Shown: positions 8,600-64,000 of the stretch, one piece after another
Layout of the letters: every line of letters begins with the position of its first letter
Position numbering within the stretch: the first letter of the stretch is position 1
DNA from: Candidatus Marsarchaeota archaeon
GTDB lineage: Archaea > Micrarchaeota > Micrarchaeia > Micrarchaeales > Micrarchaeaceae
Length of the DNA: 64,000 nucleotides
Assembly: GCA_023473665.1 (NCBI GenBank)
Contig: JAMCYM010000001.1
Coordinates: forward strand, 52,923 to 116,922
Direction of reading: 5' to 3'
Translations under genes and position numbers: made by a program
The notes under the pieces: model-generated
Seen by the model: the letters and a program-made list of their open reading frames with translations, nothing else
Database searches by the model: none
Told to the model about the DNA's origin: nothing

Positions 8600-8896
8600 T
8601 TATCTCCTTCTTGCCTTGGCCCTTCTTGCCGGGCTCGCCCTCTTTGCGCTCCTCCTTGAGCTCCTCGAGCCTCTCATCCTTCCCCCACGGTTCATCTTTG
8701 TCCTTGCTACATAGCCGCTCTTGTCGATGAAGTATAGGTAGCCATTCTGCCTAGACACGCGCTCCTTTCCTATACGCGCCTTCCTTCCGCGCGCATTGGC
8801 TCTCATTGGTGTGCGCCAGACGTAACCGTCCTTGCCTAGGTAATAGAGATAGCCGTCTTCTCTACCTACCCTTTCTCTTCCAATCCTTTCTGCCAT
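8600..8896 (-). CDS. Small, very basic protein with an internal tandem duplication and an Arg-rich tail (hypothetical)
   Basis: Two roughly 35-aa repeats (RIGRERVGREDGYLYYLGKDGYVWRTPMR and RIGKERVSRQNGYLYFIDKSGYVARTKMNR) followed by an R/K/S/A-rich tail. Confidence 0.45.
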   Translation of the reverse strand: MAERIGRERVGREDGYLYYLGKDGYVWRTPMRANARGRKARIGKERVSRQNGYLYFIDKSGYVARTKMNRGGRMRGSRSSRRSAKRASPARRAKARRR

Positions 8897-9069
8897 CAGA
8901 TTCACCGATTACTAATACATGGATAAACTTAAATAACTATCGACGTAACTTCGAGGGAAAAACTGCCAAATGCGGTCTCGTTAGGCGTCTATGCATCTTT
9001 GGTGTGAATGTTATCTGCCGTGTGCAGCGCATACTTAATAATATCTTTTGCTAATACCTATCGATTCGC

Positions 9070-9858: not shown

Positions 9859-9965
9859 GCAGGGGTGGCGGAGTCTGGTTTGGCTCTTACTAGCCACGGA
9901 AAAACGCGCAGGACTTAAGATCCTGTGGCCTAGCGCCTTCGAGAGTTCGAATCTCTCCCCCTGCA
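9859..9965 (+). tRNA. tRNA-Leu(TAA) with a roughly 21-nt non-canonical intron in the D-loop
   Basis: Acceptor GCAGGGG/CCCCTGC; anticodon arm CAGGA-CTTAAGA-TCCTG; long variable arm; T arm GAGAG-TTCGAAT-CTCTC. The 107-nt length is explained by an extra hairpin, TGGCT-CTTACT-AGCCA, inside the D-loop. Confidence 0.8.
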
Positions 9966-9969
9966 CCTC

Positions 9970-10386
9970 ATGCTGATAAGGGGTAATGCAGTGGAAGTGA
10001 CTGATAACAAATTAATCAAACGGGCAAAACGAGTAGCCAAAGCGCATAAGGCGTCAACAGATGTTAAAACTGGCAGGGTAGGCTGCGCATTAATCACTAA
10101 TAAAAACCATGTGTATACTGGCGTGAGCATCGAGGCCTCTTGCGGAATAGGGTTCTGCGCCGAGCACAGTGCCATAGCCAGCATGGCGACCAATAGGGAA
10201 TACAGCATTAAGAGAATCGTGGCCGTTTCAAGCAATGGAACCATATTGCCGCCTTGCGGCAGGTGCAGAGAGTTGATGTATCAGATCAACAACAAAAACT
10301 TGGATACTGAAATAGTCATCGGAAAAGGTAAAGCTACAAAACTCAGAGATTTGCTTCCAGAGGTCTGGCAGAAAAGGTTCTACTGA
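9970..10386 (+). CDS. Cytidine/blasticidin-S deaminase family zinc deaminase
   Basis: 138 aa; CAEHSA and PCGRCRE zinc-binding motifs; starts 4 nt after the tRNA-Leu 3' end. Confidence 0.7.
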   Translation: MLIRGNAVEVTDNKLIKRAKRVAKAHKASTDVKTGRVGCALITNKNHVYTGVSIEASCGIGFCAEHSAIASMATNREYSIKRIVAVSSNGTILPPCGRCRELMYQINNKNLDTEIVIGKGKATKLRDLLPEVWQKRFY

Positions 10387-10414
10387 GAAGATTAGGCCCT
10401 CCAGAGCATGGAGA

Positions 10415-11155
10415 TTACGGTATTTCTTTCTCGTGCGCCTTTACAAACTTCCATGACTGGCGCAGAAAGTCTGCAAAATCTTTTCTGTTATCGTAGAAAT
10501 CCTTTAGGTAAGCGAGCAGTGGTCTGCCTTTTATGACACATCCTTGAAACTGTGGATGGGAACCGAAATTAAAGTCCACGACCTTACGTATCCTCTTATC
10601 ATTCAGGATGATTTGTGGCACCATCTCGCTCAACTTCCATACAAGATATGGGGGATCAAATTCCTTCTCATCAGCCTTGGGGAGCACCTCCTTCCATTTC
10701 TCGAAATACAGGAAATGTGAGAGTTCATGCACGCATGTTACTGCCATTCCTATAAATTTAAATTTGTAGAATATGTCGAATCTCCTAGATTTTATGTATC
10801 TAGGGCCTACTGGGTCCATTGAAATGTAGGCGTGTATTATTCTGTCTTTTTTTGGCCATTCCTTCTCAATCACTTCCGATAGCGCAAGCATAACCTCATT
10901 GTTCAGAGAAGGCCAGTTCCTGTTGAATCTCATTAATGCTCTCTCCATTGCGGGTTTTTGTTTTAAATAAACCCTGCTAAAAAAACCATACGTTATCCTT
11001 CTTCGCTCATGTGCCGTGTCTATGCCTTTTAATAGTGTTTCCAGCTCTGGATACCAATGGTTGAAGATGCTTACCCAGCGGCTCCGCAGAGAATATATGG
11101 TTGGGAGGTCCATTCTCAACGGTATTATTTTAGCCTTAACGACAGGCAACCCCAT
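10415..11155 (-). CDS. Hypothetical protein with an HExxH (gluzincin-like) motif
   Basis: About 246 aa; CVHELSHFLYF with a downstream LSEMVP Glu; visibly AT-richer than its neighbours. The ORF track gives a GTG start at 11164; ATG at 11155. Confidence 0.45.
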   Translation of the reverse strand: MGLPVVKAKIIPLRMDLPTIYSLRSRWVSIFNHWYPELETLLKGIDTAHERRRITYGFFSRVYLKQKPAMERALMRFNRNWPSLNNEVMLALSEVIEKEWPKKDRIIHAYISMDPVGPRYIKSRRFDIFYKFKFIGMAVTCVHELSHFLYFEKWKEVLPKADEKEFDPPYLVWKLSEMVPQIILNDKRIRKVVDFNFGSHPQFQGCVIKGRPLLAYLKDFYDNRKDFADFLRQSWKFVKAHEKEIP

Positions 11156-11254
11156 GCAATTCACATCTTTGTGTATTGCTACTTATACAGCCCTATTTAA
11201 AAGGTGTGGCAGTGCCGCAGAAAGTTTGAAATATTCTAGTTGCTAATACATACC

Positions 11255-11686
11255 ATGGCGAAAATAGTCCTTATCTCATGCTCAAAAAGCAAGCTGGACC
11301 ACAGGGCGAAAGCCATCGACATGTACACCGGCGCACTCTTCAGGCTGAGCCTCCAGTACGCCAAAACACTTAAGCTCGACAAGCTGTTCATACTGTCGGC
11401 CAAGCACCACCTGCTTGACCCGAACAGGGAGATAGAGCCTTACGATTTGTCCCTAAAATTGATGAGCAAAGCCGAAAAGGCGGAATGGGCCAATATCGTG
11501 ATAGGCCAATTGCGTGAACACGCTGATCTCGAAAACGACACATTCGTAATGCTTGCCGGAAGCGAGTATGCCAAGCCATTGGAAAGCCATGTGCACATAA
11601 AGGAATATCCGCTGGCTGGCCTTTCTCTTGGCAACAGGCTCAAAAGATTGAAGGCATTAGCAGCAGAGAGCGATAGGCATGGATAG
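11255..11686 (+). CDS. DUF6884-like protein (uncharacterised)
   Basis: 143 aa from the ATG; IVLISCSKSK N-terminus, FILSAKHHLL, EPYDLSL and AEWANIVIGQL resemble my recollection of the DUF6884 family. Its stop overlaps the next gene's start. Confidence 0.5.
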   Translation: MAKIVLISCSKSKLDHRAKAIDMYTGALFRLSLQYAKTLKLDKLFILSAKHHLLDPNREIEPYDLSLKLMSKAEKAEWANIVIGQLREHADLENDTFVMLAGSEYAKPLESHVHIKEYPLAGLSLGNRLKRLKALAAESDRHG

Positions 11687-12335
11687 TACAAACGAACGCT
11701 GTGCACTTTTGCACAAACTGTTTAACTCGCTGGAGAGGTTTACATGGCAGTTTGACGCGTCAAAGATACCACTCAATGGTATATACGTGTTCTTCGAGAA
11801 GGGTGAGAGAAGCCATGGCTTCGACCGCATAGTGCGGATAGGCACGCACAACGGCCAGAACCAGCTGCGCTCAAGGCTTGCACAACATCTAATAAACGAG
11901 AACAAGGACAGGAGCATATTCAGGAAGAACGTCGGCAGGGCAATAATAAGTAAATCTGGCGATATGAAGCTCCTCGAAATGTGGGAGAAGGATCGTACAA
12001 CAAGAAAGGGCAAGTCCGAGAGCAAGGGCTTTGATATGGACGCGATAACAAAGGTGGAGAATGAGGTATCGGAATACATGCGGAAAAATCTCAGTTTCGT
12101 TGTATTTGAGGTCGGTGCCAAAGAGGATAGGCTGGCTTTGGAATCAAAGCTCATATCTACAGTGTCGCTGTGCGATGCATGCAAACCATCGCCTGACTGG
12201 CTCGGCAACTTCTCTTCTAAGCAGAAAATACGCGAGAGCGGCCTCTGGCTTGTCAATGAACTGTACAAGAAGCCTATGTCTTACGTCGACATCGAAGAGC
12301 TCGGGGCGAGGCTTGGTCTTGCCCCTAAACCGTAG
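11679..12335 (+). CDS. GIY-YIG domain nuclease family protein
   Basis: 218 aa; NGIYVFF, RIVRIGTH, LRSRLAQH and ALESKLI match the GIY / YIG / Arg / Glu core elements; 8-nt overlap with the upstream ORF. Confidence 0.6.
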   Translation: MDSTNERCALLHKLFNSLERFTWQFDASKIPLNGIYVFFEKGERSHGFDRIVRIGTHNGQNQLRSRLAQHLINENKDRSIFRKNVGRAIISKSGDMKLLEMWEKDRTTRKGKSESKGFDMDAITKVENEVSEYMRKNLSFVVFEVGAKEDRLALESKLISTVSLCDACKPSPDWLGNFSSKQKIRESGLWLVNELYKKPMSYVDIEELGARLGLAPKP

Positions 12336-12409
12336 CCTTTACCATATAACACAAAATTTTAAATACCTGCGATAGAAAACTCTACTGTACATTCTGCATA
12401 TTAGCCACG

Positions 12410-36221: not shown

Positions 36222-36415
36222 CTTTCACGCCCTAAATATTGCTGGTGTCGGTATGGCAGCCTGAGCACTCAGTGGCTCCTGTATTTGAAAGCTAGTTTTG
36301 CTTGCTTTGTGAAGATACACCTGCTATCTAGAGCGCTCTATCTGTGCTGCTGTGCTATTGCACTTGTGTGATCGTGCGTTTGCGCGATTGAATCGAGGAG
36401 AAGAGAAGCTTGCAA

Positions 36416-39250
36416 AATTTTTAAGCCACCTAGAGGATGGCTTGGCTATAGCAGCGATGAAGGCCGTGGCAAGCTGCGATAAGCCCGGGGTAGCCGCAAG
36501 TCAGGCTTTGAACCCGGGATTGCCGAATTGCGCACAGCGATGTGCGAGCACACGCGGGGAACTGAAATATCTTAGTACCCGCAGGAAAAGAAAGCGAAAG
36601 CGATGCGGTAAGTAATGCGAATGAAAGCCGCACAGGGCGAACTGAATCCCGCTTTGCAAAAGGCGCGGAGATGTGGGGCAGCGCCGATCCAGGACATGAG
36701 CCGAGCGCGCTGGAAAGCGCGGCCATAGAGAGTGACAGCCTCGTAGGCTAAGTGCGATGGACCTGCTGCCGGAGAGTAATTCCGCTCGAGTATGCGGAGT
36801 GAAGACGGGGGCATTAAACCCCAACCCTAAATATTGGCTATAGACCGATAGCGAACAAGTAGCGTGAGCGAAAGCTGAAAAGAACCCACACGCGTGGGAG
36901 TGAAAAGATCTGAAACTAGGTGGTGACACGAAGGTATGGCGAGGAAGGAATGATGTGCGCCGAAGCGCGAGCTTGAGAAGGCTTAGCGAGGCGCAAGAAC
37001 CATTGTCATGCCATTCTTCTTGAAGCAAGAGCCAGGGAGTGTATGGATGTGGCGAGCCGTAAGGCGTAGCGAAAGCGAGAGCGCGCAGCATGCGAGGCGC
37101 GAGGTATGAAAATGCCCAAGTCACACTCATACGACCCGAAGCCACTGCGAACTACGCGCGCCCAAGGCGAAGCTAGGCTAACGCCTGGTGGAGGCCTGCA
37201 ACCTGTCATGGCATGCCCTGTTGGGTGAGGCGCGGGTAGCGGCGATATACCACTCGAGCGTGGCAATAGCGGGTCCCCTCTGAAGTATCTTTAGGATAGC
37301 TCCGGGCGAGCTTGCGCACGCGGTAGAGCGACCGATTGATGGGTATGGGTCCGGAAGGACTCGCCTGTCCGTCAAACTCCGAATGCATGCGCTGCGTAGA
37401 CCCCGGGAGTCGGCGGTGTTGGGTAAGCTAGCACCGCGAGACTGCAAAGATAGTGACCAAGGTTAAGGTCCCCAAATCCTAGTTAAGTGCAAAGAAAGCG
37501 AGAAGCGCCACAGACAGCTGGGAGGTAGGCTCAGAAGCAGCCATCCTTCAAAAAACGCGTAATAGCGTACCAGTTGAGGCGTTCCTTTCTGAAAATATAC
37601 GGGGCTAAACTAGGTACCGAGACCCTGGAGTGCGAAAGCACTGGTAAGAGGGCGTACGGCGCGGCTGGAAGCATGCGCGAGAGCACATGTGGACCGCGCC
37701 GCAGTGAACATCCTGGTGTTAGTAATAGCATATATGGGTGAGAATCCCATACACCGTAAGCACACGGGTTTCTTCGCAACGCTTGTCAGCGGAGAGTTAG
37801 GCGATCCTAAGCGGCGGGCCAATCACCTCGCCGCAAAAGGGAAGCTGGTTAATATTCCAGCCCCTAACGTGTAGGTGTGGCAACACAAGGCAGATTTCTG
37901 ACGCCTGGGGATAGGTCCGCAAGAAAGTGCAAAGGGCTGTGGAGTCTCGTTATGAGGAGAAGCAGCTAAATGAACTGTTGGACTGATTTCTTGGGCCCGT
38001 GAAAAGGGAATCTGCAACGATCACGTTAGTCCGTACCTAGAACCAGTACAGGTGCTGCTGGCTTAAAAGGCCAAGGTGTGTCGGAATAACCATGGTTAGG
38101 GAATTCGGCAAAATAGTGGCGTAAGTTTTCGACAAGCCATGTCTGCGCCTAGTAAGCGCAGATGTCACTGACAAGGGAACAACGACTGTTTATCAAAAAC
38201 ACAACTCACCGCAAAGCCGAAAGGCTAAGTACAGTGGGTGACGCCTGCTCACCGCCAGTACGTGAACACCCTTTTCAAGGGGGATAAGCGCTGGCAAAGA
38301 GCGGGAGTAACTCTGACTCTCTTGAGGTAGCGTAATACCTCGTCACTTAATAGGTGACTTGCATGAAGGGCGTAACGATTGTTCCACTGTCCCAACCATG
38401 GATCCGGTGAACTCACTTCGTGGTGAATATGCCACGATCCTCCAGTGGGAAATGAAGACTCTATGAAGCTTGACTACAGCCTGCTGTTGTTGTCCGGTTT
38501 GCCATACATAGCGTAAGTGGGAGCGTCGATGCGCGCGCTGCGGCGCGCGCGGAGCGACAATGTAACACCACTTTTGGCTTTCCGTACAGCTTACCCGAGA
38601 GGGGACAGCTACAGGTGGGTAGTTAGACTGGACGGTTACTTTCGATAGGGAAACGAAAGCGACCAAAGCTCTGCTTAGGCGAGTTGGAAACTCGCCGCTA
38701 AGCAAAAAGGCAAATGCAGGGCTGACTGTGCACTGAAAAGCGTGGTGCGCAGACTGGAAACAGGGGCTTAACGAACGTTGGTAGCTCTTTTAATGGGGCT
38801 CCAAGCTGTCAGACAAGTTACTCTAGAGGTAACCGATTCGTCGCCGGCGAGAGTTCACATCGACCTGGCGCATTGATACATCGTTATGGGCTTGGGTTAT
38901 CCTGGTGGTGCACAAGCTGCCAAGGGTTGGGCTGTACGCCCATTAAAAACTCACATGAGCTGCGTTCAGTACGTCGCGAGACAGTACGGTAGTATCTACT
39001 GGAGGTGTAAGTGCCAGAGGATAAGACCCCCTTAATACGAGAGGAACGGGGGATCGGCGCCACTGGTGTACCTGTTGTGAATGCATTGCAGGGTAGCTAC
39101 GCGCCAAATGGATAAGTCCTGAAAGCATCTAAGGACGAAGCCAGACCCGAAACGAGGCACTAGGGCGGCCGCAATCGACGGCTTTGATAGGAGGGGTGCG
39201 CAAGCAGGGAGCTCACGCGACCTGCGAACATTCCCTTACTAACGCCTTAC
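36416..39250 (+). rRNA. 23S ribosomal RNA (unlinked from the 16S, strongly divergent)
   Basis: 5' domain GGGGAACTGAAATATCTTAGTACCCGCAGGAAAAGAAA, sarcin-ricin-like GTACGAGAGGAAC-type region, 3' GAAAGCATCTAAG. Flanked by complementary processing-stem arms at 36397-36415 and 39251-39268. Confidence 0.9.
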
Positions 39251-39270
39251 TTGCAAGCTCTCTTCTCCAA

Positions 39271-49479: not shown

Positions 49480-49745
49480 GTGGCAGATAGGCTGGGAAGT
49501 TAAGGGTTTCCCATTCGCAAATCCCTTTCAGGCGGGCCAATGCCGGCAGCGTGCCGGAATGCCATTTGAGGCCTGCACCAAGGCGTTGAGGTCTTGCCCT
49601 GGATGATGGCCCAATATGTGAACCAGGCCAGGCCGGAAGGAGCAACCTTAAGCATATTCAGGCCATGCTTCTAGGATACAGGACTGAGTCGAGATGCAAC
49701 CAACCTCATTTGGCATTCATGTGCAACGCCGGCCTCTGCCACACG
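49480..49745 (+). ncRNA. Signal recognition particle RNA (7S RNA)
   Basis: Helix-8 signature GTGAACCAGGCCAGGCCGGAAGGAGCAACC. The 5' GTGGCAGA..GGC pairs with the 3' GCCTCTGCCAC. Ends are approximate. Confidence 0.7.
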
Positions 49746-55969: not shown

Positions 55970-56070
55970 CCCGTTGTAGCTCAATGGCAGAGCGACCGGC
56001 TGTAGTTTGTTAGCTTCTTGCAAAACAAGAAGATACCGGTAGGTTGGGCGTTCAACTCGCCCCAACGGGA
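55970..56070 (+). tRNA. tRNA-Tyr(GTA) with a 29-nt canonical (37/38) intron
   Basis: Acceptor CCCGTTG/CAACGGG (archaeal C1-G72), D arm GCTC/GAGC, anticodon stem ACCGG/CCGGT, anticodon GTA at 56002-56004, intron 56006-56034 with a CTTCTTG/CAAGAAG hairpin, T arm GGGCG/CGCCC. Confidence 0.85.
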
Positions 56071-63624: not shown

Positions 63625-64000
63625 ACTCCAGTCGATGCTGCTGGAGGACACTGCTATCAGATTTCGACAGCCATGCAAGTCTGCTCTATGGCTTCATAGG
63701 GCGGCGTACGGCTCAGTAACGCGTAGTCAATCTAACGCACGGAGGAGCACACCCCCGGGAAACTGGGGTTAATTCTCCATAAGCAAGGGCATCTGGAAGG
63801 AGCCCTTGCCAAAAGGGGCGCAAAATGCAGCGCTTCCGCCATGCGATGAGACTGCGTCGGATCAGGCAGATGGCGGGGTAACGGCCCACCATACCGATAA
63901 CCCGTAGGGGATATGGGAGTATGAGCCCCGAGAAGGGCACTGAGACAAGGGCCCTAGCGCTACGGCGTGCAGCAGGCGCGCAAACTCCACAATGCGCGTA
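63625..64000 (+). rRNA. 16S ribosomal RNA, 5' part (runs off the window)
   Basis: ACTCCAGTCGATGCTGCTGGAGG...GCCATGCAAGTC...GGCTCAGTAACGCGT...CTACGGCGTGCAGCAGGCGCG align by eye with the archaeal 16S 5' domain. Confidence 0.88.

Follow-up and report, generated by a model that had tools for sequence, protein, structure and literature searches.

PDC-M57, a candidate defence system of the PADLOC database, is a two-gene cassette (CAS_00183, FAM_03160>>FAM_00294) that was nominated by 'guilt-by-embedding' (Payne et al. 2024 preprint, 10.1101/2024.01.29.577857). Here, we describe a new archaeal member of this already catalogued candidate family in a 64,000-nucleotide (nt) stretch of a Candidatus Marsarchaeota genome (assembly GCA_023473665.1, contig JAMCYM010000001.1, positions 52,923 to 116,922), which we refer to as the window. 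The pair consists of a gene for a DUF6884 protein of 143 amino acids (aa) (PDC-M57A; 11255 to 11686, plus strand) and a gene for a GIY_YIG_3 (PF26468) protein of 218 aa (PDC-M57B; 11679 to 12335, plus strand). We interpret the locus as a PDC-M57 member within an accessory insertion, in which a YaaA/DpdC-like putative DNA-base reader would guide a putative nuclease effector in defence, and we give this explanation as a whole a probability of roughly 0.55.

Pfam curators describe DUF6884 as having CxxxK and LSAxxG motifs, a YaaA-like 'cantaloupe' fold, and a basic DNA-binding cleft, and an AlphaFold 3 model places a flipped base in the motif pocket (PMC11701544). The Bacillus subtilis member YfjM was enriched on DNA probes containing abasic sites or RNA bases, that is, ribonucleotides (PMC10220248). 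YfjM is described only as a member of a family that occurs stand-alone or combined with other domains (PMC11701544), whereas the window subfamily is coupled or fused to a nuclease. DpdC turns preQ0 into 7-amido-7-deazaguanine (ADG) in DNA, in a reaction that proceeds without DpdA/B or ATP (PMC10164549); both YaaA and DpdC are longer proteins than the window DUF6884. We found no paper on the function of DUF6884 or GIY_YIG_3.

The PDC-M57 pair and its distribution

Both window proteins match the PDC-M57 profiles over their full length. The DUF6884 protein matches PDC-M57A (PDLC04712) with E = 1e-51 (residues 1 to 135 of 143, profile positions 1 to 135 of 138), and the GIY_YIG_3 protein matches PDC-M57B (PDLC04713) with E = 5.6e-88 (residues 6 to 209, profile positions 3 to 206 of 211). 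As in the catalogued cassette, gene A precedes gene B on the same strand and the two overlap, here by 8 nt (ATGGATAG). It is near certain that the pair belongs to PDC-M57, and the first-pass annotation, made from the sequence alone, was wrong in stating that no named system has this composition. The RefSeq cassettes on which PDC-M57 was based lay inside BREX, DISARM, or type I restriction-modification (RM) systems, whereas the window pair stands alone between a tRNA gene and a lipid-biosynthesis gene.

We scanned one genome per species in GTDB (185,579 representatives) and found the family in 388 species-level genomes, a lower bound set by the peptide patterns used. The best 80 of the 388 comprise 50 archaeal and 30 bacterial genomes, the latter from at least 15 phyla, and all are 53 to 63% identical to the query. 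Archaeal and bacterial members are as similar to each other (identity 0.61) as bacterial members are among themselves, which indicates repeated transfer of the whole unit between the two domains.

The pairing was assessed in a set of 83 M57 loci, namely the best 80 from the species scan and three fetched separately; the contig ends too early in two of them, leaving 81 informative loci. DUF6884 lies directly upstream on the same strand in 63/81 loci and is fused to the nuclease in 11/81, for a total of 74/81. The remaining 7/81 (~9%) carry the nuclease without DUF6884, even as a pseudogene, though the contig has room for it. The commonest overlaps between the two genes are 4 and 8 nt long (19 and 18 loci, respectively). 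The window overlap had been read as a sign of translational coupling, a suggestion with which the conserved and often fused pair in other genomes agrees. Pairing or fusion is kept in 10 of 11 IMG/VR relatives that are only 30 to 43% identical (9/11 at 40 to 43%), and a profile search of 1.84 billion cluster representatives returned 1821 clusters, including many DUF6884-GIY_YIG_3 fusions. These fusions often end in a C-terminal DUF7662, and some add a PIF1 helicase, a Top1 zinc ribbon, or tetratricopeptide (TPR) repeats. DUF7662 (~70 aa), seen in cluster representatives such as P0219, P0225, P0230, and P0217, does not occur in the window pair, and we found no literature on it.

Pairwise identities of the two proteins are correlated (r = 0.72, Mantel p = 0.001, 69 loci); judging from these comparisons, the two proteins co-evolve. 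All-against-all clustering of the neighbouring genes yielded no third conserved gene, with no other neighbour family present in >7/81 loci. Overall, the comparative data show that DUF6884 and GIY_YIG_3 travel together between archaea and bacteria as a self-contained unit, either as two genes or as one fused gene.

The same data bear on an alternative explanation, in which the pair is a selfish RM-like or toxin-antitoxin cassette: DUF6884 would alter or shield host DNA, or neutralise the nuclease, while the GIY-YIG enzyme would cut DNA lacking protection, and loss of the cassette would be punished. Protector-first gene order with translational coupling is consistent with such a cassette, as is the occurrence of the pair as solitary insertions without integrases; in addition, GIY-YIG type II restriction enzymes exist, and the distant relative DpdC supplies the modification function of the Dpd restriction system. 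However, the two parts are often fused (in 11/83 loci and in many cluster representatives), which suits domains that cooperate better than it suits antagonists; a nuclease without DUF6884, as found in ~9% of loci, should be lethal if it were a toxin; and de novo modification of DNA is unlikely for a 143-aa protein that lacks a domain for cofactor binding. We therefore consider a selfish cassette improbable.

Few clear defence genes occur among the neighbours of the pair: two HsdS and two HsdM proteins (type I RM), three AriA/GajA/PtuA-like ATPases, and single REase_II, DpdJ, AbiEii, BrxH, and SngC proteins. The DpdJ match (E = 3e-125) lies beside one M57 locus (among L048 to L086); DpdJ is the restriction-arm gene of the 7-deazaguanine Dpd system, and its presence is suggestive given the weak likeness between DUF6884 and DpdC.

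Among 'dark' two-gene modules, the pair is comparatively well defined: it is compact and strongly conserved, has passed between archaea and bacteria, and has been fused repeatedly. The window locus adds a clear case in Marsarchaeota in which presence or absence varies at one chromosomal site, and it adds evidence that the module is strictly two-gene and usually alone rather than in defence islands.

The two proteins and their possible role

The assignment of the 143-aa protein to DUF6884, suggested in the first-pass annotation from its ISCSKSK N-terminus, was borne out by a hidden Markov model (HMM) search (PF21818, E = 3.4e-41, 141 bits versus a cutoff of 30, profile positions 1 to 134 of 135). 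The protein is small and basic (isoelectric point 9.1), and its motif-bearing N-terminal half gives weak matches to YaaA (PF03883, E = 1.8e-4) and DpdC (E = 3e-4). We counted motif residues across 72 aligned partners. The CxxxK motif reads C9-S-K-S-K13 in the window, with C present in 68/72 partners and K in 69/72, and gaps in the rest. The LSAxxG motif, whose Gly is present in 66/72 partners, instead reads L47-S-A-K-H-H52. The change of this Gly to His (G52H) always occurs together with a change of a near-invariant Ser to Gly (S26G), and the combination was found only in the window (11255 to 11686) and in two other loci (L001, 369 to 809; L011, 189 to 611), all three from Marsarchaeota. The two substitutions may compensate each other within the putative base pocket, and DUF6884 in the Marsarchaeota lineage may have altered specificity or activity.

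Two phage protein families of unknown function also match the window DUF6884 (11255 to 11683): phrog_5935 (E = 1e-23) and phrog_5436 (E = 3e-13). The nuclease partner has no match in PHROGs, and, on the basis of these searches, phages seem to carry the reader alone.

The homologues of the 218-aa protein are labelled PF26468 'GIY_YIG_3' (a precomputed label). The protein itself had no above-threshold match in the Pfam copy that we searched, which lacks the PF26468 model; the match to PF01541 reached 12.4 bits versus a cutoff of 22.6 (E = 0.21). We aligned 30 members drawn from metagenome and genome matches, whose taxonomy is mostly unlabelled. Sub-threshold matches among them were to DUF123 (22/30), GIY-YIG (15/30), and GIY_YIG_2 (12/30). 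Y36, G55, R66, H70, and E155 are invariant in all 30 members, and we infer from the alignment that Y36, R66, H70, and E155 are the GIY-YIG catalytic and metal-binding residues. An AlphaFold2 (AF2) model (mean predicted local distance difference test score [pLDDT] of 93.4) places the GIY element on a strand at 34 to 45, the RIG element on a strand at 48 to 55, and R66 and H70 on a helix at 63 to 71; a helical insert of ~60 residues follows, then a strand at 138 to 144 and a helix at 148 to 163 that bears E155. Judged from the order of secondary-structure elements only, the modelled beta-beta-alpha ... beta-alpha arrangement fits that of the GIY-YIG core.

Like the GIY-YIG nucleases (the UvrC/Cho N-terminal domain, I-TevI, Seg, and Eco29kI-type enzymes), the window protein thus has a GIY...(R)IG hairpin, a helix with Arg and His, and a later helix with Glu. 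It differs in that the second Tyr (YIG) is Arg, the helical insert of ~60 residues splits the core, and a C-terminal extension of ~60 residues follows. The first-pass annotation had named a GIY-YIG nuclease with an unassigned C-terminal region of 60 aa. The PF26468 label, core residues, and topology are in line with the first part of that description; the C-terminal region is not a lone region and forms part of a conserved domain found family-wide, with invariant W174, G176, K183, and G188 to N193.

In the mechanism that we propose, the DUF6884 protein, as a probable member of the YaaA/DpdC fold group, would bind DNA and flip an unusual base, whether modified, damaged, or foreign, into a pocket where its conserved Cys and Lys lie. 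Translational coupling would cause the two proteins to be made in a fixed ratio, and DUF6884 would then position or license the GIY-YIG-type nuclease to cut the DNA nearby. The role of such a modification- or lesion-dependent nuclease would be restriction of invading DNA that contains these bases. The logic resembles that of type IV restriction enzymes (SRA-HNH, MspJI family), in which a base-flipping reader is coupled or fused to a nuclease; however, the folds of both parts are unrelated to those of M57, and modification dependence of M57 is purely hypothetical. We consider a reader-plus-nuclease mechanism reasonably probable, and we give a role in defence an even chance, rating it only slightly likelier than repair. 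More tentatively, the M57 nucleases of archaea and bacteria may make up a new class that reads bases: a Cys-Lys pocket would recognise a specific non-canonical base and license a divergent GIY-YIG domain to cut. The base could be a 7-deazaguanine, another of the hypermodified bases that protect phages from restriction, or damage such as an abasic site. If true, two folds new to this purpose would together form a system for modification-dependent restriction or lesion incision. The mechanism would also give DUF6884 a function, amount to a new restriction principle or incision-repair route, and offer a possible tool for DNA-base detection.

Several results weigh against a base-reading defence nuclease. 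PDC-M57 is one of 145 PDC candidates, all described as untested (10.1101/2024.01.29.577857). In Foldseek searches with the 218-aa model, the best E was 1.9 against the PDB and 0.46 against BFVD, where several (phage) proteins annotated as GIY-YIG appeared at E = 1.7 to 5.8. No GIY-YIG protein was recovered from PDB sequences by a profile search. A comparison by hhalign with the T4 Seg and I-Tev domains gave a probability of 0.2% (the target alignment contained T4 SegA, SegB, SegF, I-TevII, and I-TevI); the sole segment aligned at that probability puts E155 on the catalytic Glu of the Seg/I-Tev domains. Because every direct comparison was nonsignificant, we regard the GIY-YIG label as probable, not proven. 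In the DUF6884 protein, the change of the motif Gly to His and of the near-invariant Ser to Gly means that activity could differ here. Mobile DNA contributed little: only 7 of 72,556 PLSDB plasmids matched, all weakly, and no GenBank phages did. By raw counts, the 274 nearest-neighbour open reading frames (ORFs) of 80 loci are mostly housekeeping genes. Finally, the 30-member nuclease alignment has 49 invariant columns and a mean column identity of 61%, which is unusually high for a defence nuclease and would fit a repair enzyme too.

That fit leads to a second alternative, an accessory DNA-repair module in which DUF6884 would read a damaged base, abasic site, or ribonucleotide and the GIY-YIG protein would incise the DNA like UvrC/Cho. 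The enrichment of YfjM on abasic and RNA-base probes (PMC10220248) points in this direction, as do the repair role proposed for DUF6884 by Pfam curators, the link between YaaA and oxidative stress, the very high cross-domain sequence conservation, the mainly housekeeping neighbours, and the absence of recurrent mobile-element genes beside the pair. A repair module is harder to reconcile with a sporadic distribution (at least 388 of the 185,579 species representatives) and interdomain transfer, with presence/absence that varies at one locus among close relatives, with the recovery of the candidate from within BREX, DISARM, or type I RM, and with fusions to TPR, leucine-rich repeat (LRR), and PIF1 helicase domains that are typical of immune sensors. 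Because the family is sporadic, horizontally transferred, and variable at one locus, because the candidate was drawn from RM/BREX systems, and because of the helicase, TPR, and LRR fusions, we slightly favour defence and regard repair as a possible but less likely alternative.

An insertion made of two independent modules

Comparison with relatives identified the region from ~9966 to 12340 as an insertion. In a relative whose geranylgeranyl reductase is 84% identical to that of the window (L087), the reductase gene begins 186 nt beyond the 3' half of tRNA-Leu, and in a more distant relative (L089, reductase 59% identical) the order is PAC2, tRNA-Leu, and reductase gene, with nothing between the last two. 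The gap between tRNA-Leu and the reductase gene in these two relatives is ~190 to 250 nt and has no intervening gene. Given that these relatives have tRNA-Leu directly beside the reductase gene, it is near certain that ~9966 to 12340 is an accessory insertion at this site, and the comparison suggested by the first-pass annotation thus bore out its suspicion about 9970 to 12335. The right border is formed by the 5' region and promoter of the reductase gene (12336 to 12409, plus strand). The final ~75 nt before the reductase start align with the island-free L087, which fixes the border near 12340. The DUF6884/GIY_YIG_3 pair is kept in the closest of these relatives (L001, reductase 90% identical); therefore, it is present at 90% reductase identity and missing at the same site at 84% and 59%. 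In a further contig (L091, reductase 80% identical), ribosomal protein genes adjoin the reductase gene.

The left border is a tRNA-Leu(UAA) gene (9859 to 9965, plus strand) with a non-canonical D-loop intron of ~20 nt (roughly 9879 to 9903). Neither ARAGORN nor Rfam at its gathering threshold called a tRNA at 9859 to 9965; ARAGORN called tRNA-Leu(UAA) once 19 to 31 nt were deleted from the D-loop, and the earlier placement of a tRNA-Leu gene here holds after removal of the intron. In a related Marsarchaeota contig (L104), the tRNA-Leu exons are 100% identical to those of the window and only the loop of the GGC...GCC intron hairpin differs, which is the pattern expected for a tRNA-Leu intron. 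An intron-permitting ARAGORN run miscalled the gene as tRNA-His. A second tRNA gene of intron-containing length (101 nt) at 55970 to 56070 was found by Rfam and missed by ARAGORN.

Like an integrase-mediated tRNA-gene island, the insertion lies 3' of a tRNA gene and is missing in relatives. Unlike such an island, it has no integrase ORF, and we found no att-like direct repeat of the tRNA 3' end; the repeats present are only 12 to 22 nt and imperfect, and none match the tRNA 3' end. One candidate att pair (TACTAGCCACGG / TATTAGCCACGG, 12 nt) was rejected, given that its right copy (12399) lies in reductase-upstream sequence common to the island-free L087. The contigs of several relatives break off at or close to the locus (L104 inside tRNA-Leu; L001, L087, and L088 immediately before the reductase gene or M57 pair), a pattern that suggests a hotspot rich in repeats or variable among strains.

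The insertion (9966 to 12340) has a GC content of 0.461, compared to 0.537 for the window, and it is the lowest-GC stretch of its size (2.4 kb) in the window, with 0.5% of equal-sized windows as low. The AT-rich patch beside the tRNA, previously judged by eye, is therefore real; the dip is uneven across its genes. The two lowest GC values among 63 ORFs are those of a HExxH protein gene (0.423, z = -3.6) and a cytidine deaminase gene (0.458, z = -2.5). In the DUF6884 and GIY-YIG genes, GC content is only slightly reduced (z = -1.4 and -1.6, respectively), and third-position GC is in the normal range. All four ORFs of the first-pass annotation are present in the window, and they make up two independent modules: the deaminase and HExxH genes (module 1) and the DUF6884 and GIY_YIG_3 genes (module 2). 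Because GC content differs between the modules, they probably arrived separately, the deaminase/HExxH module plausibly more recently and from a DPANN-like donor.

The proteins of this region are identical or near-identical to entries from Candidatus Marsarchaeota metagenome-assembled genomes (MAGs), and a second assembly of the same organism (L103; 99.87% nt identity over 13.3 kb) has the same gene arrangement.

Genes beside the pair and other features of the window

The HExxH gene (10415 to 11155, minus strand) has the lowest GC content in the window and encodes an orphan protein of 246 aa. Its 79 homologues come mostly from MAGs of Nanoarchaeota and other DPANN lineages, and H143, E144, H147, and E177 are invariant in 28 aligned members. 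No family in Pfam, NCBIfam, PADLOC, or PHROGs matched, including any peptidase. An AF2 model of high confidence (pLDDT 95.9) found nothing below E = 0.9 in a Foldseek search of the PDB, and zincins (IrrE/PprI, M1 aminopeptidases, jannalysin) appeared only among insignificant matches (E = 3.7 to 7.6). The gluzincin-like HExxH...E motif reported in the first-pass annotation is thus invariant, while its structural likeness to zincins is insignificant; a metallopeptidase is a reasonable guess from the motif.

The first-pass annotation had also read the locus as one system, in which the HExxH protein, DUF6884, and the GIY-YIG protein (with or without the deaminase) would act together under a shared divergent promoter. 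The genes are adjacent, the HExxH and DUF6884 genes diverge across 99 nt that contain a palindromic TTTAAA, and the arrangement recurs in L103. With an HMM built from the 79 HExxH homologues, we examined every ORF within 8 kb in the 83 M57 loci, as well as those of 11 viral loci. No HExxH homologue was detected in any of them (0/83 and 0/11), so that the proposed co-occurrence with DUF6884 and GIY-YIG genes fell away, and none of the HExxH contexts examined contained M57 genes. The related Marsarchaeota contig (L104/L105), in which the HExxH and deaminase proteins are 71% and 75% identical to those of the window and their genes are still adjacent, has the order tRNA-Leu, deaminase, HExxH, and a TnpB-like ORF where the window has DUF6884. 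In L001, whose GIY_YIG_3 gene is 78% identical, a different ORF precedes DUF6884. Nucleotide homology between the window and L104 stops at 11098, and homology with L001 begins at 11219. Together with the GC difference between the modules and a separate, proximal promoter-like element conserved upstream of DUF6884, these results make a single system very improbable, and we reject HExxH as a partner of the pair. The TnpB-like ORF (L104, 2 to 397) resembles TnpB/IS605 OrfB, with a CxxC...CxxC zinc finger and a RuvC-like C-terminus.

The 99-nt spacer between the HExxH and DUF6884 genes (11156 to 11254), which we read directly, contains TATTTAAAA at 11194 to 11202 (TTTTAAATA on the minus strand), 39 to 47 nt upstream of the HExxH ATG, and TTGAAATAT at about 11226 to 11236, 20 to 28 nt upstream of the DUF6884 ATG. 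Only the proximal TTGAAATAT element and the block from 11219 onward are conserved with L001; the TATTTAAAA palindrome lies outside this block. Judged by archaeal TATA-box geometry, TATTTAAAA appears better placed as a promoter element for the HExxH gene. The palindromic element of the proposed shared promoter of ~90 nt is thus present, but DUF6884 has its own conserved, proximal TATA-like element. Given that a TnpB-like ORF, not DUF6884, follows HExxH in related Marsarchaeota, comparison of these contigs indicates that the divergent 'shared promoter' is a local accident.

Elsewhere, HExxH homologues in DPANN archaea have unrelated housekeeping genes as neighbours: they lie beside a Ski2-like helicase, between truB and a ribosomal protein L31e gene, or in a cysteine desulfurase/NifU cluster, and one adjoins AbiEii. 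In one DPANN lineage (L108, 2464 to 3219, and a 158-kb JGI contig), the homologue has overlapping start and stop codons within a cysteine desulfurase/acetyltransferase/DUF1858/NifU cluster, a context that hints at a metal- or Fe-S-related role for this homologue rather than defence. The HExxH proteins form a small orphan family of their own and merit attention only as a putative, unclassified metalloenzyme from DPANN archaea.

The other gene of module 1 (9970 to 10386, plus strand) encodes a member of the cytidine deaminase family (PF00383, E = 6e-12), as first annotated, and lies outside the two-gene system. NCBIfam cytidine deaminase models match with E = 8e-20, just under their cutoff. Given that homologues are 131 to 132 aa and that the NCBI call for the window protein (P0350) is 131 aa, translation probably starts at GTG 9991 (131 aa), not at ATG 9970 (138 aa). 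Its closest relatives outside Marsarchaeota are from DPANN archaea and Patescibacteria (60 to 71% identity).

An Rfam scan of the window located an archaeal large-subunit (LSU) rRNA gene at 36405 to 39261 and the start of a small-subunit (SSU) rRNA gene at 63625 (63625 to 64000); the two are ~24 kb apart and thus unlinked. The top-scoring model for the signal recognition particle (SRP) RNA at 49483 to 49739 was the bacterial large SRP, not the archaeal one. On the other side of the tRNA-Leu gene, an ORF at 8603 to 8905 (minus strand) encodes a basic protein of 101 aa without a Pfam match, in which the motif G(Y/F)LY(Y/F)..K.GYV.RT.M occurs twice as an internal duplication. This protein is conserved beside PAC2 in the relative L088 (65% identity).

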